Assembly: GCA_010093705.1 (NCBI GenBank) | Contig: MU006090.1 | Location: 124,001 to 188,000, forward strand | From: Patellaria atrata CBS 101060 | Lineage: Eukaryota | Length of the DNA: 64,000 nucleotides | Reading direction: 5' to 3' | Shown here: one piece after another, positions 907-60,136 of the stretch | Layout: the number at the start of each line of letters is the position of its first letter | Numbering within the stretch: the stretch's first letter is position 1 | Notes under the pieces: model-generated | Database searches by the model: none | What the model was told of the DNA's origin: nothing | The model's input: the letters and a program-made list of their open reading frames with translations, nothing else | Translations under genes and position numbers: made by a program

Positions 907-1987
907 ATGTCGAATATGTCTGCAAGCTACGAAGTTTCCAATGTGAAACCCATTACCATCTTTTCTTCTTATATGCTCCTCGCGATTACCCTCACCTCCT
1001 TTATCATACGACGGTTAATCCAGAGCTCCCCAACTTCTATTCGACCGAAAAATGATACATTTAAAATCATATTATTTTCCATACTTGCAATTATCAGCCT
1101 TGGAACCACTTGGTTCTACATGTTGGAATTCTTCAAATACTCGTACCGGTTATGGGCGGAGAGACGAGATATAAAGTTACCTGAAAGTTTTCAAGCCGGA
1201 CTCTTGAGCATTGGAAGCAATGATAAACATAGCTTGCGACTTGGTAGTTGGTTAAAAGATAGTAAATTGTTTAAAGAAGCTTGGGGAACTGCTCTTGAGA
1301 CTCCATTACGCCAATGGTGGACGCAGCAGATCTTCTTCTTCGCTGCGCTTCTGAGCTTGCTCATGTGTAAGTTGTTCTTCTAGAGACTAGGTATTATTCA
1401 AGCTCATCCTCGCAGCATATGAGGTCCATATATCTCATGCATGGGCTTTCGTACTGTTAGGCCAGCTCGTCGCCATATCCTTCGCATCGAATCTGTTCTT
1501 TCTAGCTGTGCTGGTCAAATCAGAATCATCGAAAAGTCGCAGCAAGATAAAGACTAAAGACTTCCTGGAAGAGAAACCAGTTGATCCATCTTGGATTGTC
1601 TCCTTTATATTCCAGGGTATACCGCTTATATTCACCCTGGTCTGCGTCGTCCTTATTCCTTACGTCCAAGAAACACAGTATTTTCTTCCAGTCCTACTTG
1701 TACCACATGCAGTCCTCTTTATTCCTCCATTATTGCCTCAGCTTGTAAAGGGTTCTAGCAGTGTTTTTCAGCGTGATAACACTAACCGGAAAGCTCTGTT
1801 GGAGACTATCTTCGTGCTTTCTTTTACGTTTCTTCAGATCACCGCCACCACCAAAAGCGTTGATAACTGGAGGTTTGAACCGATATGGCAGACTCTATAT
1901 GAGCATCCTGCCGTAAGTAGTGTCGGGTGGGACGTCATCATGTGCACAATTAGTTATACTCTATGGACCTTGGTGGGGAAATCGTAA
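907..1987 (+). CDS. Polytopic integral membrane protein of unknown function (2 exons, intron 1367-1415)
   Basis: ORFs 907-1383 and 1508-1987 join in frame through a GTAAGT...CGCAG intron (…LLMSYEVHISHAWAFVLLGQLVAISFASNLFFLAVL…). Many hydrophobic helices; C-terminal HPAVSSVGWDVI. Confidence 0.8.
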
Positions 1988-2070
1988 AATCATTTTGATC
2001 TACTGGCTGACCGCATGCGTCCGCATGCTTGAGTATCCACAGTCGTACTACGAGGAACAACTTCAAGGGA

Positions 2071-3210
2071 CTATATCTTAGCAATGACGATGACGCCTCT
2101 CACGATTCTAGATCTTGCCCACCATTTAAAAAGCCACTTTGCTATTCGAAATGGACCAATTCCAAGGCCAATCGCCGCCAATTCCTTCTCCCGACGTTCG
2201 AGGAATCGAGCTAGAGGGCCAAAGCAGTGCTCTGATATGTCCCGGATTATCACATCGCCCTTGTAACCGACATTTTCAAGCATGTGACGGTATTCTGCTT
2301 CGGTCAGAAAGGCTCCTGCAGGACATCCCATGAAGCGGGCTATGATGGATAGGAGGAGTCTAGAGGTTGGAGTGGCAGAATCGGAAAGAAGGAGATCAAA
2401 CGCCATCAACGAAGCCTTTAGCTTTGATACGGAAAATTCTAGAATCGGTTCCCGGGAAGGAGAAAAGTGGTACAGAGTATCCAGAGCGAGCAACCAGACC
2501 TCCTCGTCTGGGGTAACCGCAGCTTTCTTTACTGTTAGACTTAGAACCTCCGACATCAACCTCTTGTTCCAGGATTGGGGCTTTGCTGCGTCTGCACAGA
2601 ACAAGCGATAGCTCTCGAATGATTCGGGATGCACAGCGCAAGCCTTTTGGATTCGCTGTTCGGCGTAGGCATGTTGGGCTTGGTTGTTTGTTATGCCAAC
2701 ATATGTAGTTCTCGTCTCGATCAGGCAATCTTTCAAGGCCATCGTCTGGTCACCACAGCCAAATCCGACATCAAGAATCGATATACGTCTTTCACTTAGA
2801 CTATCATCAGAAGAGTTTAGTAGTCCAGCTGATTTGAGCACTTCATTCAGGAGTGCCGAACTAGCGTGACGCAGATCAGATGCTTCCGCTTTCTGAATAC
2901 TCATTAGACTGACGAAAAGTGTGACGGGCAAAGGTTTCCGCACTTTCCAATATCCCATATTCATCCACATCGTTGTTGGTAAGTCCAAGTTCAATCGACC
3001 ATGATCCAATCCGTAGATGGCTTCACCCTTTTTGGAATTTCTACAGGTCGCTTTTTTTAGTAAGATGCTAAGGATCGGGAACGAGGTCAAGCCCGCTATC
3101 CAAAATGTGAGATATGTCCCAACCGTCCTCCATGACCACAGAAACAGGTGACCTTTGAACATCAGGATCGTAATTGATGCTGGACATATTATCCAGAATA
3201 GAGTCTTCAT
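2071..3210 (-). CDS. Class I SAM-dependent methyltransferase with hydrophobic N-terminus (probable in-frame intron 2893-2943)
   Basis: WMNMGYW pre-motif, motif I ILDVGFGCGDQ, CADA and LALDTLYHF; two hydrophobic N-terminal segments; a GTGCGG...CTAAT...CAG intron-like segment of 51 nt. Confidence 0.85.
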   Translation of the reverse strand: MKTLFWIICPASITILMFKGHLFLWSWRTVGTYLTFWIAGLTSFPILSILLKKATCRNSKKGEAIYGLDHGRLNLDLPTTMWMNMGYWKVRKPLPVTLFVSLMSIQKAEASDLRHASSALLNEVLKSAGLLNSSDDSLSERRISILDVGFGCGDQTMALKDCLIETRTTYVGITNNQAQHAYAEQRIQKACAVHPESFESYRLFCADAAKPQSWNKRLMSEVLSLTVKKAAVTPDEEVWLLALDTLYHFSPSREPILEFSVSKLKASLMAFDLLLSDSATPTSRLLLSIIARFMGCPAGAFLTEAEYRHMLENVGYKGDVIIRDISEHCFGPLARFLERREKELAAIGLGIGPFRIAKWLFKWWARSRIVRGVIVIAKI

Positions 3211-3521
3211 AGTTTTTTCATTAGCTTAATTAATGCTGAATAATACACAGAACTCTTGCACGTTTGGTGGATCTCTCATGTCATTCGGGTCCCCTTGGTC
3301 CGTTGCGAGATTGAAACATGCGGATAAGCTGACTAACCAGAAGGTCAATACCTACCTTATCCATAGATCATCCCCATGGATCCTTCTCTCCTACACAACT
3401 TTATCACAAGTACAAAAATAGCAGAAAAGTCCTCATCTGCACTCGAGTGCGTTAGGGTATCATATATCTAGCGCTGCAAAGGCGACGACATCAACTCATC
3501 ACTTCATATACCTTCCAATTG

Positions 3522-4981
3522 CTACCATGGGACCTCAACATCGAATGCTTTTGCAACACGCATTGCGGAAACAACGCAGCCTTCCAAAAGAACCATACCA
3601 TCCCAACACCATCCTCCGACAAGCCAAACACCTTGGTCCCCATTCTTCCAATACGGTCGTTTCTCATCCCCTGGATACCAATTTGGCCCCTCATTCTGGA
3701 AGACCTCATTGAGAATCCTCCTGCTCTTCGGCGTCCGTAGGACTCTCGTAAATCTTGATGCGTGAACAACTTCACCTGCATCAATTGATGTGAACGGGCA
3801 GGTAATTACCCTGGCTCCATAGCTCTTTTCCTCGACAGCTTCGGTCCGGGCATCATCTCCTAATGTGGTTCGAAGATGAATCATCTGTGCCCCCTTTTCG
3901 TCTGAGTCTCTATCCGCTACACCCACATACCTCTTGTCTGAGTAAGTGGCGACATTACGGCTTTGACAGCCAATACGCACCATACTCTCAACGCGAAGTG
4001 TCGGTAGAAATCGCATGCTGGCCCTTAGCGGTTCATAGATGCTCCCTACAACATTTGGAGCTACTGCAAGAATTACCCTATCGAAGGTCTCTTCTGTGAC
4101 TGTACCAACTCCTGGTCTCGTGTTCATCCAACTAATCTTGATCGTGGGCCCTAAGGGCTTTACTTCGAGGATTCTTGCACACATTCGTGACGTTAACCCC
4201 CGAGCGAGCCGTCGTTGTACCACTCCAACTCCGTTAGAGACTGCATAGTGCTGAGCTCGGTGAGTCTTCTTCTTGTAATCAACGATGTCCCTCGCTGGAA
4301 AATTTAAAACTGCGCTATGCGGGCATGTCGCAACACTAGACATTAAAGGAAGTAGATAGTAATTTGTAAAGTGGCTAGGAAGCATAATCCTTTGTAGATA
4401 CCGCTCGAACGTTTCACATTCCGAGCCTTGGGCAACAGGTTTAGGAGTAACATAAAAACAGCAAAAGGTGAACCATGCGTACCACACCAGCAGGTACAGG
4501 ATCTCGAAAATATGTTCAATCGTGCTCATCCCCTCTGGTTTGATAGGCGGCAATCGATGATTATTTGACGAATGTACAAAATAAGGTACCGCTTCGTTTT
4601 GTTTCGACGCTCCATCCGATTGTGTGACAATTTTTGAAAAGGTGAAGAGAAAGGGTTTCTGGTGATACGGGACTTGAAGATGGTCGTACATCGCTTTCAA
4701 ATTCTGATAGAAACCACCGGCGAAAGCACGCATTGGAAGATCCACACGCTCATGACCATCGCCGCGGCGATTTGGTACGGAGAGGGAAGCAGCGTCTAAG
4801 GAAAAGTCGTTGCCCTAAACTTGGTCAGAAGAGCGAGACGGAAAGAAAGATAAGACAATACCTCTTCGAATAAGGTTACCGCATACCGCTGCTTCTTGTC
4901 GCGCTGTAGAAGGTACGCGGTGACCAATCCCGCCATTCCTGAGCCTACAACGGCAATGCGCAAACGACGAATGTCCTCCAT
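3522..4981 (-). CDS. FAD/NAD(P)-binding oxidoreductase, amine-oxidase/COG2907-like (2 exons)
   Basis: Exon 1 has the Rossmann motif RIAVVGSGMAGLVTAYLL...TLFE. A GTATTG...CTGAC...TAG intron is followed by GNDFSLDAAS...RVDLPMRAF...YQNL. The C-terminal GVWLVGGWCWDGMVLLEGCVVSAMRVA is the typical closing FAD-binding motif. Confidence 0.85.
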
Positions 4982-5490
4982 GCTGTAGAGGCAAGTATGG
5001 AATTTACTGAAGGAATCTTTCCTGAAGATATTACTGTTCTGTGCAGCGCATTGTGGGGAAAGGCCGAGTATAACGGAGAGAATACAGTTAGTTAATTATT
5101 CTGAAGCTCTGACATCAATTCAGTAAGGAAATAATATCCAAAGCTAGAATGTAAAGGAGACAATTGACACCGTATACCGTAGCCCCGATCAGGTATGGGG
5201 TTTTTGGGCTGACATCATGAACACGCGCGCGTGCTCGGCGAAACAGCTTACCTTAGATTTGGAACTAGGACTAATTCAGACGTCATATACTGTACCGAAA
5301 TATATATTTGAAATGATTAATCGAAATGTTGTTGGAACGGGATGTTACCTTATACTTACCATCTTTAACGACTATCACCATGAGCATCAAACGTTTAGGT
5401 CTATAAAAAGGGTCTTCCAAGCTGTCAGAAGTCTAGTTCTAGATTAGACCCAGAGATAGTCGCCGGTTGAGCACCGTCAGCCCCGTCAAG

Positions 5491-7449
5491 ATGATCAGAG
5501 TCGCGATTATTGGAGCAGGGTACGGGCATCCCCCCAAGGTCCGGAATTTGAGTAGTTCGTTGCTGAAAACCATTTTGCGTATAGCCCAGCCGGCTTGGTT
5601 ACCTTGAAGACCATTTTGGAAGCTTCAACCTCGGAGAGACCAATAGAAGCGTGCTTGTTTGAAGCGTACGTTTTCCAGTACCTTATGCTCAACCTCATCA
5701 ATTACTAATCATTTGACAGTGAGGATGGCATCGGAGGCACTTTCAATTACCGTTCGTATGAGAACGCTGAGCTCGTAAGCTCGAAGCAGTTGACAGCGTT
5801 CTCTGATCACCGCTTCTCGTTGGAAACTTCGGACCACGTCTCTTTACCTCAGTATGTCCACTATCTTCAATCGTACGTTGAACGGTTTGATCTCAATGCA
5901 CATATCAAGCTTGGTTGTCGAGTGACCGGGATCACGCCTCTTGATTCTAAGCAGAAGTGGAAGCATCGTGTAGCATACAGGACGAAAGACCAAGCAGATC
6001 ATGCCTTTGAATGCTCTCACGTTGCTATCTGCACTGGACTTCACGTCGACCCTAATATCCCAACCATTCCGGGCATTGAATACGTGCCAGAGGCATATCA
6101 CTCCTCAAATTATAAGAACAGATCTCAGCTTACCGGTCGAGATATTCTCATCTTGGGCTGTGGGGAGACTGCAATGGGTAAGTGATTCCACTCGCCTTTG
6201 TCCCTTAAAATATTGATATCATTGTCAGACATTGCGTATGAGTCTATCAAAGCAAATGCGTCTTCCGTTACTATGTGTTATCGAACGGGTTTCCTGTCGT
6301 TTCCCAAGGCATTGAGTCGATTTCAGGTCTTCGGGAAACAATTCAAAGGTGGTCTCCCAATTGACGGGCTAATTACTAATCTCTTCGAAACCGCGTATGT
6401 CCATCGAGCTATTGCCCAAAGCCGATTGCGCTGGTTTGTGTCAGATTATGTCATCAAGCGTGTCTTGTGGTTCTTGACAGGCACTCACGCGGGAATGAAT
6501 CAACACATCGGAGCATTGCCTAAAGAGAGACTAGGGAGGGCGTATGTTTTTTTGAATAAAAGTAACAAGGCAATGCCGTATCTAAACCGACCATACCAGG
6601 AGAACAACAGATTCTTGGACTTTCTGGGCAATAAGTATATTGACCCGCCAGAAGATGCAAACTCGGAGAGATGGGTCGACACATGTTCATTTCCATCCTT
6701 CATAGATCCCTCTGGACAAGTAACATTCGAACCAAGGCCAGATAGAAAGGATTGGCACAGAATGAAGAATAAGGTAGTCAAACCGACAACTGTTATTTAC
6801 TGCACAGGGTAAAAGAGCTCCGCTTGCTGTCGTATAGATAAATGCCTAACGTCAATGCAGATATAAGCAAGACTTCGACTGGCTGCATCCATCGTACCCA
6901 AATGCTGGTCAGGCGAGCGTTCGCAATATCGTCAACGCCTCGCACCCCGACATTGCCTTTATAGGATTTGTTAGGCCGGGTGTGGGTGCTATTCCCCCTA
7001 TTACTGAACAACAGGCCATGTGGTGGACTGCTCTTATATTGGGGCGCATGGCCATACCTCGTGATCCTCCGCACTACCATCTTTTATCAGCAAAGGAGTC
7101 GAGGATCCAATATGGTGTTGACCACAGCGCCTACATGAGCACGCTTGCCCGCGACTTTGGCGGAGCACCCGGACTATTGCAGCTCTGGAAACGTCATGGC
7201 TTTCGAGTCCTCCTCACATATTGTTTCGGGGCTTCGTTCGTGACCTTCTATCGGTTAACGGGCCCCTTTGAGAGTCCAGACGCTCCCAAAGTTGCTTCTA
7301 GTGAGCTGGCTGAGACGATCATAAGAAGAGGCATCATTGGTAACATTCTCTTTGGACTCATTCCGATGCTGTTTTATGGCGTTATCAATGCTGTGGTGTA
7401 TATTCTAGACATGTGTGGACTGATTCCAGCGGAACCGCAAATGCAGTGA
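5491..7449 (+). CDS. Flavin-containing monooxygenase (FMO-like) with C-terminal membrane segment (5 exons)
   Basis: Spliced reading gives MIRVAIIGAG/PAGLVTLK...LFEA/EDGIGGTF...LVSSKQLTAFSD, CTGLH, HSSNYK, the NADPH motif LGCGETAM/DIA, YCTG/Y and FIGFVRP-VGAIP. Four GT-AG introns; hydrophobic C-terminus. Confidence 0.9.
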
Positions 7450-8405: not shown

Positions 8406-9422
8406 ATGCTCCTTAAGGCTTTCTCAATCGCGGCTTCCCTGACCTTGGAAGCCTCCGCTCATGGAGGTATATCAAGGTACTTCATTGAAGGCAAAGAGTA
8501 TCCTGGGTGAGTAATATTCGTCATCCATTACCTGAAGCAAGTATCCCAACCCTCTAACCTAACTCCAGCAATGTCCCCTATGCCGCTGCTGCCACGCAAC
8601 AGAACACTATCCAACGACGCTGGTGGCCTGATCCGATATACGATATCAAGCACCCTTCCATGACCTGCAACCGAAATTCAGATCCTGGAACCAGCTTCCC
8701 GAGCCTACACGCGCCCATCGCCGCCGGCGGCAATATCACCGTCGACTACTCACGCCAGCTGGACTGCTTCGACCTCGGCCCCGGTGGCAACACCACGGCA
8801 TGCCTTGGATACCAGAATTCTTGGGTTCATTGTAAAGGAGGCATCGTAGCATACATTGCCGCCTGCAACGGGCCATGCGAGGATTTCGATGGCAAGGGAA
8901 AAGTATGGTTTAAGATCTATGAAGGGGGTTTGCTACCAGGGGGGAAGGTGGGGAGCTGCGACTGGGAGCAGCCTGATGCGACGCATTATGGCTGGGAAAC
9001 GCCGGAGGGCAAGGTTTTACCCGGTTGGACGGTCAAGATTCCAGAGAACCTCAGGCCGGGGAATTATTTGATCAGGCACGAGATCATGATGATTGAATTG
9101 TCCCCGATACAAATGTATCCGAACTGTGCGAATTTGAGGGTTGAGGGGACTGGAGATGCTTTCCCGGGTGAGGAGTATCTGGTTGAATTTCCGGGGGCTT
9201 ATGAGTTGACCGGTGAGTACCTTTCTCTTATCGTGCGTGCTTTGTAGGGAACGTGTGTGCTAATGGGATTGTAGATCCGGGTATTGCGATTGCAGGAACC
9301 GTCTATTATCCCGAGTCAAGAGATCTCACGGTAAGCCGGGTTCCGTACCTTTATGATAGACTATGAGACTAATCGAGGGGTAGAACTACACTATCCCGGG
9401 CCCGAAGGTATGGCAAGGATAG
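8406..9422 (+). CDS. Lytic polysaccharide monooxygenase, AA9 family (secreted, 4 exons)
   Basis: Signal peptide MLLKAFSIAASLTLEASA followed by His1 (HGG); WVHCKG..AYIAAC; WFKI; IPENLRPGNYLIRHE; QMYPNC; FPGAY; final exon NYTIPGPKVWQG*. Confidence 0.92.
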
Positions 9423-9717: not shown

Positions 9718-12700
9718 TTATGCGTTTACCATTAGCATGTCAGCCTCGACATCTTCTCCTTCAGCATCGATGTCGTCATCCGGTTCACCTTCCGCGTCTG
9801 CGTCGGCCTCACCATCGGCATCCGTATCCGCATCACCATCAGCGTTCGCATCTCCATTAGCATCTTCATCGGCAACTTCTTTCTCTGCTGATTCGCCAAT
9901 TATTTTTCCCTTGCCGTTAGTTTTGGTCGGACTCTTCTCCTCATCCTTGATCTCCCCATTTTCTTTTGGAAAGTCAATACCATGGACAACTTCACCTAGC
10001 TTGCTTCTAGTACGTCGTACACTGGCGTTAGCTGTCGGAATAGGAATGGGACTGTCGTTCATGACACCGAGACCAAGATTACTGGTGGATCTTCTTAGCG
10101 GTGTAGACGTTTTGCGTCTGGTGCCAAATGGGCGTGTTGAAGGCCGCTTCTTTGCAGAGTTGCCAGGAATGGGCGGGAAGACCTCAAAGCGGAACGCGGG
10201 TATAGAAATTTGTGAAGGGAGTGCAGAGTAGCTGTTACCGTTTGGAGTTGATGGACCAGAATGATGGGCGGGATGTATTGGGATCGTGGACTTCGGATGT
10301 GAAGTTGACTTAACAAGAAGGTCTGTGTTCTTGATACCTAGCATTTCATCCGTTGGTGATGGTGTTGAGTCCGCATTTTGTGAACCCGATTGGTCTCCAT
10401 TTGTAGTTGCATTTTCTAGTTGCACGCCTTCTTCGGCGACAGCCTTAGGAGCTCCACAATCCTCGCCTTCGCCCTCCCGAGGAGCGATTGTCTGTAGAGC
10501 CATACCCTCTTCGTAATGGGATAAATTGTTCCGACCCATGACATATGGTACCCACACGAGAGCGTCGGGATTTATTTTTCGAATCTTCTTCTTCTCGTAA
10601 TCTGCAATATACTGCCGATAATACGGCAAGTCAAGACGTAGTGCATACGTTTTAGTAACTGGATCCCGAACTAGAGCACGTAAGCCTTCGAGACCAGATA
10701 CAATATCATCTGGAGTCATGCCAGTTTGTTCGGAGATCCGAGAAATGCTTATGGGATCTTTCTGGCCCACCAGTTGCTTACAAAGAATGAGACGCCAGTA
10801 ACTTCGATAAGAGACTAGGCCCATATCAGAAAGTGGTTTTTCTGGTGACCCGGTTTTCTTTTCTACTCTGGTAAGGAGATAGGAGAATTCAATGAGCATA
10901 TGGCCATAACCTTTGCGTTGGCTGATGGGCAGCACAAGGATACACGAGACGTTATTCAGTGAGCTCGGCCTCTTTTCTTTCGAAAAATAACCCAGGAAAT
11001 GACAGCCATACTCATCTCGCTCGGTCATAACATAGAATAAGAATGGTTCCACGTCGTAGTAGAGAGTTTTCGATCCAAGGAAGAGCTTCGCTAGGAGACA
11101 GAGATTCTGACAATATACCGGATTCTTTCGACCGTCGACTTCGAAAAAGGAGATCTCAGTATCACGATATATCTCATCGCCCGGCGGATGACGAGCAGGA
11201 CATTTTAGCTGGAGATAGGTTAGCAGAGAGAAGAAGGGACGAGAGTATCCTTGGTTCCTTTACCTTGTGCCTCCATGCGACATAGTCAGAGTTCATATAT
11301 TTTAGACAAAACTCGCAGATATAGAGAAGCTTATTCCGACTGTACTCTTCCGGATACGGCGCAGCATGCCATGTGTCAATCATCTTTTCACCAAATATTA
11401 TTGACTTGATCTTGCTAGGGTTGCCGGAGTGTTTGTTCGCTTTAGTGGTCTCCAGGACGCCATTCGCCAGGGTTGTTTTTTGTTTCCAGTCCTCTTCTGC
11501 CTTTAGACGAGCATCTTCGAATCGTTTTCGATCTATTGCCTGGGGAAATGTCTTTGATGTATCCGCATCTGCCTCGGAGAGAATACCACCATATGGTTTT
11601 GATTTGCTTTCATCATGTTCCCGGTCGTGAAACGCGTAGAACGGTATGAAATTAGTAGATTGTATGGCAGGGTAATGGGAGACCTCGGGTTCCATCTGCG
11701 CTACCTGTATTTTCCGAGATCGATCTCGTACCCTGAACGACTTCTTCTTCGGTCGCGAAGCCAAAATCTGGGCAAGTCTGGTTTTGTCCACTCGGAACGC
11801 CATAACCAAAACACCACCTTCAACATCGACTACCCGTGCCGGGGGATATTCAATTTTTTTGTTTCGTCTAGGGCGAGATGAACGGACTCGTGATGAGGCA
11901 TCCTGATCTGATAGTGAGTCACGTGCCCCGTCAGTGAAATGCTTCTCTGATGGAGCTATGTTAATTACAGATCCACGGCCACTGGTACGGTTTTCATCTT
12001 CGGATGCAGAACTAGATTCTTCTGAGGGCCTCCTTCTTTTCCTACTAGATCGTACAACCGGTCGTGGCTCGGCTTCGTCACTTGATGCCTTCCTCTTCCG
12101 CAAGGAACGCGAACCGTCCATAGGGTCATCGTCAAGAATAAGTTTGTTGAAGACAGAGTGGGAATCTGGTTTTATGACACCCCTATTCGCTGGAAGAAGA
12201 TCCCTAGCTATCTTAGGAGCAGACGATCTACGGTTTGACATGGAGCCATCAGATCGTCTTGTATCTTCTTCCAACCCATTCTTTACACAGTCAACGCATC
12301 GCCACCGTTCAGGATCTATCAGGTTCGAATTAGAACTAGTTTGTTCTGAAATATTGGTGTTAAGGGACCTTGAGGCCTTACCTTCTTCGGTGCTAAGTGA
12401 TTTAGCGTTGCGGGCACATTGCCGATGAGCTGCAGGAACAAAAAATAGTCAGCGAACCATGCACCTTGTCAATATAAATTCCGCAAACCCACCATTATCC
12501 CCACACACTGCGCAGGAAAGATATTCTTCAAAATCTTCACTAGGATCGTGTTCCTCGTCTTGGCCACAGAAACTGTATAAATTTAGCGTTTGCATCTCGC
12601 CGATATCTGAATGGAAATACATACATGCACCTGTTTGGGTCAGATATCTCTACTTCGGCCTCTCCACCAGCGTCACTCTCTCCCTCCCATTCATTCTCTG

Positions 12701-57603: not shown

Positions 57604-58036
57604 GTGTCAAGGTTTGGGCAAAAGAAATACAACGGTTCATGGTATATGATATAGAGAATAATTAAACAATAACTTCAATAATCACGATTCTGGGAAGCAA
57701 AGACTTTCTTCCTACATTTAGTAAATTTGGTTGTGCCGTGACTAAATACACCAATCAGACGGACACTAATGATTGACTTTTAGACTCTCAGCTAGGTAAA
57801 CCTCTTTCTCCAGTCCCCTAGAATATTTATTCACTCCACAGCTCGTGCACTTGAACATCAGAAAAATATCATGCATGATTATATTCACGTAAGAAAGAAA
57901 CGCTCTGGTGTAAATTTAAAACACTTGCACGATGCTTTGTCTTCGTGAACTTTGCTAACTGCGGAATAACCTTACTCTATCCGCAAACGTCAACCCGACC
58001 CCATCAACAGCATAATAACTGCAATATATTTCCTAT

Positions 58037-60136
58037 ATGCCAATTCACATTCAGCCCCTCAGAAAACGACGAAAAGTCAAATTTGTTTCAAAAATGTCCT
58101 CATCCGAGAAGAGCTCGATAGATTCAGCAACGCAGACTTTAGAAGAACTACTCAATTCGACATTTCGTGTAGAGGAACTTCCCCCATCCCCATCGGATGA
58201 ACAAGGAGAGATTTCAAATTCGCAAAAGAATAGATATTCTCCGATACCACGACTCTTTACCGAACTCCCACCAATAAGCGACTCACTTGTAACTGATAGC
58301 TCGAGAATCCAGGATGAGACATTAAGAGCTGTTCTCCCGTGGCTAACGTTACGAGGGAATCAAATCACCGACTTCAATTCTTTTGGCATACCGGCGCTAC
58401 AGCGACGTTATCATGCCTCATTCCTCAACAGTGCGTTGGAGGATTATCCCTCTAAGTTCACCTTAATGGATGCGAGTAGACCATGGTTTATGTATTGGGC
58501 ATTGGCGGGACTCTCTTTTCTCGGAGAGGATATTGACGAATATCGAGACAGGTAAGCAACGATCGAGGGATATCAAAGCTGAACTAGGTCCTTCAGAGGC
58601 TATTATTCATTTTGGAATGGACATATTTACAACCATAGTTCCCCTACTATTCCTTTGTCCACTGGAAATGCTTTTAACTTTTATCAATAGAACTATCTAT
58701 ACGTTGGACGCCTGTCAAAATCTCAGCGGAGGGTACGGAGGTGGACATGGTCACTACGCTCATCTCGCAACTACTTATGCTACTGTATTAGCTCTATGTA
58801 TGGTAGGAGGTAGGGATGCATACGACTCTATCGATCGTAAAGCCATGTATGTCTCTTTTCGACGCGTCCAAACTGCCCTGTACTAACCTCCGAAAGGTGG
58901 CATTGGATTGGAAGTATGAAGCAACGAGATGGTGGCTTCACCATGTGCACGGGGGGCGAGCAGGACGTGCGGTATGAAGGTTGTGTAATAGCACCATTGA
59001 CTTGCCTTACTCACTCTCCGATAGAGGTGCATACTGTGCCATGACCATCATCGCCCTCCTTAATCTACCTCTAGACCTTCCTCCCGGTGCCCCCGCCAAA
59101 GTCCAAGGCCACGAGACTTTCCTCACCGGTCTCGGTAACTGGATATCGCGCTGTACGTCCTGTCCTATCTCCTCGATCTACTTTTCTAACCGTCGTAGGC
59201 CAATCTTATGAAGGGGGGATAGGAGCCTCCCCCGGAAACGAGGCCCATGGCGCTTACGCTTTCTGCGGCCTCGCCTGTCTCTGCATCATAGGGCCTCCGC
59301 ACGAAACTATTCCAAAGTGCGTATCTTGCTTCTGCGCACTTTGCAGCTGATCTCCACCCCAATCCCATTCTATCAAACGTCTTCCCTCCCCCTACCCCTA
59401 GACCTTTCCCTCAAAGCTCTCCCTTGAAATTCTTTTCTCACATTCGCTTCAGACCCATCCGTAAGCCACAATCCAACCGCGCTAACACCCACCAGGTACC
59501 TCGACATTCCCTCCCTTCTCTCCTGGATGTCATCTCGTCAACAAGCTCCAGAAGGCGGCTTCACCGGCCGCACTAACAAGCTGGTCGACGGCTGCTATAG
59601 CCATTGGGTTGGCGGCACTTGGACCTTGCTCGAAGCCGCACTCGCCGGCTCAAGCGGCGTAACCGACCCCATCATTGCGGGCGCAATTGAGAAGGGACTG
59701 TGGAGCCGCGAGGGTCTAACGAGATGGATCCTATGCGCGGCGCAGAATAAGAAGGGAGGGTTGAGGGATAAGCCGGGGAAGTGAGTTACCGACCCATCTT
59801 GTTTATCACGTTGGAGCTGGGAAGGCGTTTGTTTGCTAGATCTTCGCTTTGCTAATGGCGTGTGGTAGACCACCTGATGCCTATCATAGCAATTACAACC
59901 TCGCTGGCCTCTCCGCCGCACAGCATCACTATACGTACGACCAGTCGTTCGAGACGGCGTTAGAAGGTGCGCTTGAAGCACCGTTTAAGTGGGTTATTGG
60001 AAGACAGGAGCCGGAAGGGGAGGAGAAGGTGTGGGATCGAAGGGATGAGGTTGAGGATGTTCACCCTGTGTTTGTCGTGCCGTGGGGAGCGGCGGAGCTG
60101 ATGAGGAGATATTTTGAGGGGAAGGTTGGATTTTGA
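58037..60136 (+). CDS. RAM1: Protein farnesyltransferase beta subunit (multi-exon)
   Basis: DASRPW..YW, GGYGGGHGHYAHLATTYA, EQDV/RGAYCA, QSYEGG, EAHGAYAFCGLA, EGGFTGRTNKLVDGCYSHWVG, GGLRDKPGK/PDAYHSNYNLAGLS. Confidence 0.95.

Follow-up and report, generated by a model that had tools for sequence, protein, structure and literature searches.

The closest described counterpart of the locus considered here is the UfaM/UfaD/UfaO pathway by which methylated furan fatty acids are made in Cereibacter (Rhodobacter) sphaeroides and Rhodopseudomonas palustris (Lemke et al. 2020, PMC7380195). In that pathway, UfaD (RSP1091/RPA2571) desaturates a methylated acyl chain made by UfaM, and the DUF1365 protein UfaO then inserts O2. 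A second counterpart is the Arabidopsis protein AT3G23510 (UFAM1/UFAD1), in which a UfaD-like oxidase is fused to a cyclopropane-fatty-acid (CFA)-synthase-like methyltransferase. Two papers place this protein on lipid droplets, report 34% identity to UfaM and 38.5% identity to UfaD, and treat its function as hypothesized (PMC10940516, PMC13247531). The genes of the furan fatty acid pathway are known only from the two alphaproteobacteria; for plants, the pathway is hypothesized for a fused homologue (PMC7380195, PMC10940516). Here we analyse a 64-kb stretch of the genome of the fungus Patellaria atrata CBS 101060 (Dothideomycetes, order Patellariales), called the window below. Sequence reading and a splice check identified four genes at positions 907-7449, which encode a multi-pass membrane protein that we call G1, an S-adenosylmethionine (SAM)-dependent methyltransferase, a flavin adenine dinucleotide (FAD) flavoprotein and a class B flavin-containing monooxygenase (FMO).

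We propose that this neighbourhood may be a conserved fungal module for the tailoring of membrane lipids, with the flavoprotein and the methyltransferase as its core and the FMO and G1, a DUF2834 protein, as accessory members. We put the probability of this reading at roughly 0.45. Its parts are not equally firm. It is very probable that the flavoprotein and the methyltransferase are functionally coupled. That their substrate is a lipid chain, which is methylated and then dehydrogenated, is a tentative proposal on which we would stop a little short of an even bet.

Functional coupling of the pair is suggested by its gene order in other fungi. We dereplicated 55 fungal metagenome loci containing flavoprotein relatives into 39 groups (>= 97% DNA identity) and mapped the window proteins onto them. 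Groups counted as informative for the methyltransferase if they had at least 1.5 kb on the relevant side (n = 25) and for the FMO if they had at least 2.5 kb upstream (n = 13); 14 groups were informative for G1. In 18 of its 25 informative groups, the methyltransferase lay no more than 4 kb from the flavoprotein. It was downstream on the same strand in 16 of these 18, with gaps of 254-963 bp in 15 groups and 3.9 kb in one (L040; L numbers denote single loci), and it was divergent upstream in two Helotiales-like groups (L021 and L027). In Venturia nashicola, the flavoprotein and the methyltransferase carry the consecutive tags ATG12063 and ATG12064. In 12 species including Venturia, the two genes are on contigs of equal size, with Bimuria as an exception, although this is only an indirect sign of linkage.

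Protein databases point to the same adjacency. A search with the methyltransferase family profile returned 1424 representatives at E <= 1e-3 (180 at E <= 1e-30), and seven of the best 150 listed are fusion models, with flavoprotein in the N-terminal 410-510 residues and methyltransferase at the C-terminus (P0272, P0282, P0286, P0293, P0303, P0353 and P0355). These seven representative clusters fall in three classes and come from Paramyrothecium, Podospora, Colletotrichum, Eremomyces, Aspergillus rambellii/ochraceoroseus and two Chaetothyriales. Whether the fusions are real or merged, they show that the flavoprotein-then-methyltransferase adjacency exists in Sordariomycetes and Eurotiomycetes. 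The adjacency is kept in at least four classes of Pezizomycotina: Dothideomycetes, Sordariomycetes, Eurotiomycetes and Leotiomycetes. Clustering is beyond chance for this pair, and partly so for the FMO and G1. An earlier, first-pass annotation of the window had treated all four genes as one cluster and would have given this up if the homologues were neither co-located nor co-expressed in other fungi. For the core pair this objection fails, as the pair is co-located both in the metagenome groups and in named genomes, whereas the intact four-gene unit was seen only in the Patellaria window; elsewhere the FMO (in Pleosporales) and G1 (in a few lineages) join the pair separately.

Profile comparison identifies the flavoprotein as a full-length remote homologue of bacterial UfaD-type (COG2907-like) FAD oxidoreductases. 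Its translated exons match a 470-aa P. atrata CBS 101060 protein (P0001) with 100% identity. The N-terminus contains the FAD-binding Rossmann motif GxGxxG, as VVGSGMAGL, and Pfam matches are to NAD_binding_8 (PF13450; E 3.6e-15, residues 11-86) and weakly to Amino_oxidase (E 1e-3). The fungal family profile aligned by hhalign with a Cupriavidus FAD oxidoreductase open reading frame (ORF; L056:7052-8260) over 370 columns, with a probability of 97.2% and E 3.6e-11. The motifs TLFE, VD..F and Y.NL and the C-terminal G.W...E...S..RVA are visible in this alignment, so the likeness to COG2907 proteins that the first-pass annotation had drawn from such motifs is borne out. The partners in this comparison were Cupriavidus-type relatives with UfaD-like genomic surroundings rather than UfaD (RSP1091).

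That setting was seen in a plasmid collection that we searched by tblastn with the flavoprotein. The search gave 14 records at E <= 1e-3, and the best matches had 24-26% identity over residues 5-319 (E 1e-7). In all six records that we inspected (H2, H4, H5, H8, H9 and H13), CFA-synthase-family genes neighbour the flavoprotein relative, as the first-pass annotation had stated for bacterial COG2907 proteins. DUF1365 falls within the stretch shown for five of the six; it is immediately downstream in four and 5 kb away in the rhizobial record H8, and none lies within the stretch shown for the rhizobial record H9. Four of the six neighbourhoods also contain a sigma-factor/anti-sigma pair, annotated as ChrR family in the two rhizobial records. 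The CFA-synthase-family and DUF1365 neighbours of these relatives constitute the same genomic setting as that of UfaD, as described in PMC7380195. A scan of genome contigs with the flavoprotein alignment gave 19 pattern matches and no relatives, the patterns being fungus-specific and uninformative for bacteria.

For the methyltransferase the leads are weaker, and they suggest a strongly diverged offshoot of the CMAS superfamily that is not itself a CFA synthase. The gene model is 100% identical to a database protein of 379 aa (P0121), and its SAM motif I, ILDVGFGCGDQ, is that of a class I SAM enzyme. We place it in the CMAS superfamily because of its neighbours in the ESM Atlas and its CMAS-positive distant relatives. 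The nearest named ESM-Atlas clusters mostly carry CMAS (PF02353). In addition, 20 distant relatives match the fungal methyltransferase profile over nearly its full length at E 1e-35 to 1e-52, and CMAS is found in four of them above the Pfam cut-off (29-46 bits) and in nine at E <= 1e-3. The CMAS-linked relatives come from Mucoromycota and a choanoflagellate. An NCBIfam search of P0121 gave no match, and a PDB sequence search with the methyltransferase profile gave marginal matches only.

The FMO belongs to the Pfam FMO-like family (PF00743), with matches at E 4.9e-15 in exon 3 and 2.5e-5 in exon 5. Two dinucleotide-binding motifs, for FAD and NADPH, are present as GAGPAG at residue 8 and GCGETA at residue 183, and all four introns are GT..AG introns of 51-65 nt. 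The strict FMO-identifying motif FxGxxxHxxx[YF] had no exact regular-expression match in the 578-aa product. An intron-poor orthologue from Pleosporales (an ORF of L015) best matches the ancestral mammalian FMO2, FMO5 and FMO3-6 (E 3e-25 to 6e-23).

G1, which is 100% identical to database protein P0241, matches Pfam DUF2834 (PF11196) with its C-terminal 50 residues; the score is 26.1-26.2 bits (cut-off 22.9), and the match spans only about half of the 96 profile positions. The L031 orthologue of G1 matches DUF2834 at 30.6 bits. G1 homologues are few: 23 were found in a search of proteins of at least 332 aa, and they form an ascomycete family of multi-pass proteins with the invariant C-terminal motif HPA..SV.WDV. 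A structure search of the ESM Atlas found no related fold beyond the protein's own ascomycete clusters (TM <= 0.33), and DUF2834 was not found on two bacterial plasmids that bear UfaD-type loci. Four G1 homologues (P0245, P0247, P0248 and P0251) carry the UniRef name 'Alpha-mannosyltransferase alg11p', and an ALG11 mannosyltransferase gene lies about 2.6 kb from a flavoprotein of a distant subfamily in two loci (L045:6305-7405 and L051:6368-7468). The names and the neighbours together hint that, in Sordariomycetes, G1 and ALG11 are neighbours or their models have been merged.

Our model for the module is a lipid-chain mechanism. We favour it because a UfaD-family flavoprotein and a CMAS-superfamily methyltransferase are kept adjacent, both are membrane-anchored, and an O2-dependent FMO shares their promoter region in some lineages. 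In the first step, the methyltransferase would move the methyl group of SAM to a C=C double bond of a membrane-bound acyl or other lipid chain. In the second step, the flavoprotein would dehydrogenate the methylated chain in an FAD-dependent reaction. A third step, only where the FMO is present, would be the addition of oxygen by the FMO with NADPH and O2. G1 could act as a membrane scaffold or as a lipid-handling partner. A more specific version of this model is a route of filamentous ascomycetes to furan-type or other methyl-branched, oxygenated fatty acids, in which the methyltransferase and the flavoprotein would make a methylated conjugated diene on a membrane lipid and the membrane-anchored FMO would replace UfaO, the DUF1365 enzyme of bacteria and plants, for oxygen insertion. 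The Patellaria arrangement would then be the complete ancestral cluster, and other lineages would have retained parts or relics of it. We think this version fairly improbable.

Several observations weigh against the proposal of a lipid-tailoring module, some of them touching its enzymology and others its four-gene form. The methyltransferase has no Pfam CMAS match up to E 10; its sole match is Methyltransf_25, at E 0.01. By hhalign, its profile aligned with a bacterial CFA-synthase-family ORF (L056:9139-10293) over only 48 columns round SAM motif I (probability 78%, E 1.8e-5). Its structural model (predicted local distance difference test score, pLDDT, 84.4, with low values at residues 102-107) gave a tie at Z 21-23 among farnesyl diphosphate (FPP), geranyl diphosphate (GPP) and presqualene-diphosphate C-methyltransferases, mycolic/CFA cyclopropane synthases, PMT N-methyltransferases and RebM-type O-methyltransferases. 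The cyclopropane synthases PcaA, CmaA1, UmaA, Hma and Aquifex CFAS were at Z 21-22.3. As the tie extends across C-, N- and O-methyltransferases, the fold names no substrate. The first-pass annotation had proposed comparing this enzyme with CFA synthases; what stands of that comparison is the link to CMAS through distant relatives and the tie in fold, and a direct family match does not.

The fold of the flavoprotein does not name a lipid enzyme first. The nearest solved fold of its AlphaFold model (pLDDT 85.5) is LkcE, an amide oxidase/cyclase (Foldseek E 4e-24). VIA-align superposed the two over 374-376 residues with Z 31.0-31.4, a root-mean-square deviation (rmsd) of 2.7-2.8 and 19-20% identity. 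The second-ranked matches, both at Z 24.8, are the Propionibacterium acnes fatty-acid isomerase and a putative Leptospira L-amino acid oxidase; phytoene desaturase, prenylcysteine oxidase, protoporphyrinogen oxidases and amine oxidases follow at Z 21-24. The scanned ORFs of the window and of ten fungal loci included no DUF1365 (UfaO) gene. The core pair itself is not universal: a maximal-sensitivity hidden Markov model (HMM) search found no methyltransferase in seven of the 25 informative groups (L024, L035, L042, L045, L049, L051 and L052), four of which belong to a distant flavoprotein subfamily (33-37% identity). Lastly, Aspergillus ochraceoroseus has both a merged 703-aa model and split models of 443 and 321 aa with consecutive accessions, which means that at least some of the fusions are probably annotation merges.

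The remaining adverse observations concern the FMO and G1, and they bear on the alternative that survives best. In this alternative, only the flavoprotein-methyltransferase pair forms a functional unit, and inherited gene order in some Dothideomycetes is what keeps two unrelated neighbours, the FMO and the DUF2834 protein, beside it. We consider it doubtful, but it has clear points in its favour. The FMO lies divergently upstream of the flavoprotein, 656-819 bp away, in six of 13 informative groups and is absent from the other seven. G1 lies beyond the methyltransferase in one of 14 (the L031 set, confirmed by the family HMM at E 1e-50) and is absent from 13; the maximal-sensitivity search found no hidden G1 in the loci that lack it. 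All six FMO-bearing groups are Pleosporales-like, their nearest proteins being from Alternaria, Ophiobolus, Parastagonospora and Paraphoma, and HECT and RING-finger flanks are common to them, so they represent about one lineage besides Patellaria. The FMO exons in these groups are 60-87% identical to the window FMO, much more conserved than the neighbouring flavoprotein (45-48%), and this could reflect an independent housekeeping role of the FMO. In Hirsutella minnesotensis, G1 and the methyltransferase are on different contigs.

Against the idea of mere bystanders, the order FMO-flavoprotein-methyltransferase and its divergent promoter are kept in two fungal orders with different flanking genes. 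The flanks in Patellaria are PUS3 and AA9 instead of HECT and RING-finger genes, and thus the trio holds together while its surroundings differ. G1 adjoins the methyltransferase in Patellaria, L031, Coniosporium and Verticillium, in two orientations. The Coniosporium apollinis tags are W97_08140 for G1 and W97_08138 for the flavoprotein, and in a merged model of Verticillium dahliae, G1 runs into the N-terminal anchor of the methyltransferase and its GHWKLNL...MWMNVGYW motif. Relics of both accessory genes are found at the expected places in locus L034, where the flavoprotein shares only about 50% identity with any named flavoprotein. Upstream of this gene, on the opposite strand, 31 residues remain of the C-terminal region of the FMO (L034:9136-9228, - strand; E 1.8e-6), and a relic of the most conserved motif of G1 lies directly downstream of the methyltransferase, again on the opposite strand (L034:13072-13128, - strand; tblastn E 0.075, HMM E 0.012). 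The remaining space is too small for an intact FMO or G1, and the flavoprotein-methyltransferase pair is intact. L034 thus shows the Patellaria order in decayed form, and we take the four-gene order to be old and to have been eroded repeatedly. These data suggest that the four-gene arrangement is ancestral and has since decayed, although the FMO and G1 are far less well supported as members than the core pair.

The region between the FMO and flavoprotein genes also speaks against mere inheritance of position, since the promoter word TGACATCA(A) is common to FMO-flavoprotein intergenic regions. The word TGACATCA occurs six times in the 64-kb window, and two of these copies are in the 509-bp intergenic region (+ strand). 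The sequence TGACATCAA is the sole 9-mer common to at least five of the six Pleosporales intergenic regions, and it is also present in the Patellaria region. In 11 FMO-less loci, the TGACATCA/TGACATCAA word does not occur within 700 bp upstream of the flavoprotein gene. We take TGACATCA to resemble a CRE/bZIP site. The fatty-acid-regulator site CCTCGG/CCGAGG was also considered; it has no copy in the intergenic region of the window and one in each Pleosporales region, and we did not take it as a signal.

A second alternative keeps the pair and changes its substrate. The enzymes may act on an isoprenoid-type lipid (a prenyl chain, a sterol, a quinone or a carotenoid-like chain), with C-methylation of a prenyl double bond followed by a dehydrogenation of the phytoene-desaturase or prenylcysteine-oxidase type. 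The top folds of the methyltransferase would fit such a role, as FPP, GPP and presqualene-diphosphate C-methyltransferases lead the list at Z 22-23, and so would the matches of the flavoprotein to phytoene desaturase, protoporphyrinogen oxidase and prenylcysteine oxidase at Z ~22. However, cyclopropane synthases and amine oxidases match within 1-2 Z of these folds, the flavoprotein is closest in sequence to UfaD-type enzymes from operons that modify fatty acids, and no prenyl synthase or cyclase adjoins the pair in any scanned locus. We therefore regard an isoprenoid substrate as unlikely.

It is also conceivable, if quite improbable, that the genes form a nitrogen-centred module. Here, PMT-like N-methylation of an amine-bearing membrane lipid or metabolite would be followed by MAO/LkcE-like amine oxidation and by N-oxygenation by the FMO. 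LkcE, an amide/amine oxidase, is the best fold match of the flavoprotein (Z 31, 375 residues, rmsd 2.7), phosphoethanolamine N-methyltransferases occur among the tied folds and the automatic names of the methyltransferase, and the best sequence matches of the FMO are animal-type FMOs that oxygenate heteroatoms. Sequence gives a different picture from fold: the flavoprotein is far closer to UfaD-type enzymes (E 3.6e-11, full length) than to LkcE, which a PDB sequence search with the flavoprotein recovered at E 0.3-0.4 and over the N-terminus only, among other marginal matches. The methyltransferase names, moreover, are automatic.

Most improbable is that the genes make up a tailoring sub-cluster for a secondary metabolite, with the backbone synthase encoded at another locus. 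In its favour, tailoring steps are commonly carried out by FMOs, methyltransferases and amine-oxidase-like flavoproteins, and genes for a BBE-like oxidase and a cytochrome P450 lie near flavoprotein relatives in L035 and L040. Against it, neither the 64-kb window nor the scanned loci yielded a backbone enzyme, and the pair is kept amid housekeeping genes in at least four classes of Pezizomycotina, unlike secondary-metabolite clusters, which are patchily distributed. The backbone enzymes sought were polyketide synthases (PKS), non-ribosomal peptide synthetases (NRPS), terpene synthases or cyclases and dimethylallyltryptophan synthases (DMATS), and none was found in the scanned window ORFs or the related fungal loci. 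For the window, the Pfam scan took in the cluster ORFs and, beyond position 7400, 37 of the 55 ORFs of at least 130 aa, overlapping and antisense ORFs having been dropped; within that scope, the absence of PKS, NRPS and terpene synthase genes reported in the first-pass annotation holds.

The architecture of the locus (Table 1) agrees with that annotation, which had described four tightly packed genes with gaps of about 85, 310 and 510 bp, divergent flavoprotein and FMO genes, and a position between PUS3 and a lytic polysaccharide monooxygenase (LPMO) gene. We measured gaps of 83, 311 and 509 bp, from left to right, and the flavoprotein and the FMO are encoded on the - and + strands, respectively. 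The left flank is PUS3 (ORF 1-705, - strand), whose best PDB sequence match is a tRNA pseudouridine(38/39) synthase (E 8e-12), and the right flank is an AA9 LPMO (ORF 8558-9247; Pfam E 9e-34). Membrane-compatible segments had been noted in all four products, and hydrophobic windows (19 residues, Kyte-Doolittle >= 1.6) are present in each: about six to seven in G1, residues 33-51 of the methyltransferase, residues 142-163 of the flavoprotein and residues 536-572 of the FMO. The flavoprotein segment was also found in three of four homologues tested.

Table 1. Positions of the four genes and associated features in the P. atrata window
Feature	Position	Strand	Remarks
G1, multi-pass membrane protein	907 (or 916)-1366, 1416-1987	+	340-343 aa; 49-nt intron 1367-1415
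SAM-dependent methyltransferase, N-terminal membrane anchor	2071-3210	-	379 aa modelled; 362 aa if intron removed
Probable unspliced in-frame intron within methyltransferase model	2893-2943	-	51 nt, encodes VRKPLPVTLFVSLMSIQ; splice signals and alignment
UfaD-type (COG2907-like) FAD flavoprotein	4981-4862, 4814-3522	-	470 aa; 47-nt intron 4815-4861
Divergent flavoprotein/FMO promoter region	4982-5490	.	509 bp; TGACATCA at 5110-5117 and 5210-5217
Class B FMO, C-terminal membrane anchor	5491-5519, 5585-5665, 5720-6177, 6229-6808, 6861-7449	+	578 aa

The public model of the methyltransferase probably needs correction. In an 11-member alignment, 17 residues of P0121 (VRKPL...SIQ) are absent from all ten homologues. 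The corresponding 51 nt on the - strand start with GT (GTGCGG), contain CTAAT and end with CAG. Judged from these signals and the alignment, the insertion is most likely an unspliced in-frame intron that has been kept in P0121, and the low pLDDT at residues 102-107 of the structural model agrees with this. Two sequencing runs contain the stretch, both as DNA-like contigs that cover it without joints.

The rest of the window has a housekeeping character. Directly after the AA9 gene lies a MYST-family histone acetyltransferase (9718-12448, - strand; MOZ_SAS E 1e-76, zf-MYST E 1.6e-17), and the other contents are Uds1, ING, an aminotransferase, a PP-loop ATPase, a nucleobase permease, GH76, Yme1, BRAP2 and polyubiquitin. 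At a distance of 50 kb from the cluster, a weak match to the alpha-alpha toroid family Prenyltrans (PF00432) occurs at 58019-58552 (+ strand; E 3.8e-8). The match probably represents a subunit of a protein prenyltransferase or part of a cyclase, and we propose no link to the cluster. In the metagenome loci, a membrane protein with the PF20684 'Fungal rhodopsin domain' lies 2-5 kb from flavoprotein relatives in five groups (L035:7740-8441, L040:8297-8704, L042:6013-7338, L045:14971-16303 and L051:15168-16493). This family is very large in ascomycetes, and the proximity may be due to chance. Considered as possible further cluster members, the neighbours in L040 and L035 (Stig1-like, BBE-like oxidase, P450 and Fung_rhodopsin) and ALG11 did not yield a consistent one.

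The adjacency of the pair across four classes and its likely descent from lipid-modifying enzymes point to an undescribed, conserved modification of membrane lipids in filamentous fungi. We found no paper linking these fungal genes to a function in a limited library that we searched for furan fatty acids together with fungi or Ascomycota, for COG2907 and for DUF2834. The locus also illustrates that clusters without a backbone enzyme, which standard cluster finders miss, can be recognized by conserved adjacency.

Among enzymes of solved structure, LkcE (lankacidin amide oxidase/Mannich cyclase; PDB 6f32, 6f7l, 6f7v and 6fjh) has the best fold match to the flavoprotein model. It differs in that sequence likeness is marginal and that LkcE sits in a polyketide/NRPS cluster, whereas no such backbone was found in the window. 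The P. acnes polyunsaturated fatty acid (linoleate) isomerase (PDB 2b9w) is like the flavoprotein in being an FAD enzyme that acts, in its case, on fatty-acid double bonds, and 364 residues were aligned at Z 24.8. Identity is only 10%, however, and this Z is only 1-3 above those of protoporphyrinogen and amine oxidases, so the likeness is at the level of fold and shows no function. The animal-type class B FMOs (PDB 6sem, 6sek and 6se3) are the best sequence matches of the FMO orthologue and share two dinucleotide motifs and a C-terminal anchor with the fungal protein. They differ from it in that the matches fall mainly in the N-terminal third and the strict motif was not found in the fungal product.

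The Arabidopsis protein AT3G23510, as described in the two papers, has the same N-to-C order, flavoprotein then methyltransferase, as the fungal genes and fusion models. It is a single polypeptide with a canonical CFAS domain, whereas the fungal proteins are far more diverged and mostly encoded by separate genes; the order was compared from the papers. Compared with UfaM/UfaD/UfaO, identity between the fungal and bacterial flavoproteins is only 24-26%, the fungal methyltransferase is no recognizable CFA synthase, a class B FMO stands in the place of DUF1365/UfaO, which was not found in the scanned loci, and a DUF2834 membrane protein is added. Unlike the bacterial Ufa genes, the fungal genes are eukaryotic, intron-bearing and separately transcribed. 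The common features are nevertheless several. The fungal flavoprotein is homologous to FAD oxidoreductases encoded beside DUF1365 and CFA-synthase-family genes, its gene is paired with that of a SAM methyltransferase, some lineages encode a third enzyme, one that uses O2, next to these two, and the products appear to be membrane-associated. What seems to be new in the fungal system is thus a eukaryotic, split and diverged form of the UfaD/methyltransferase coupling with different accessory genes.

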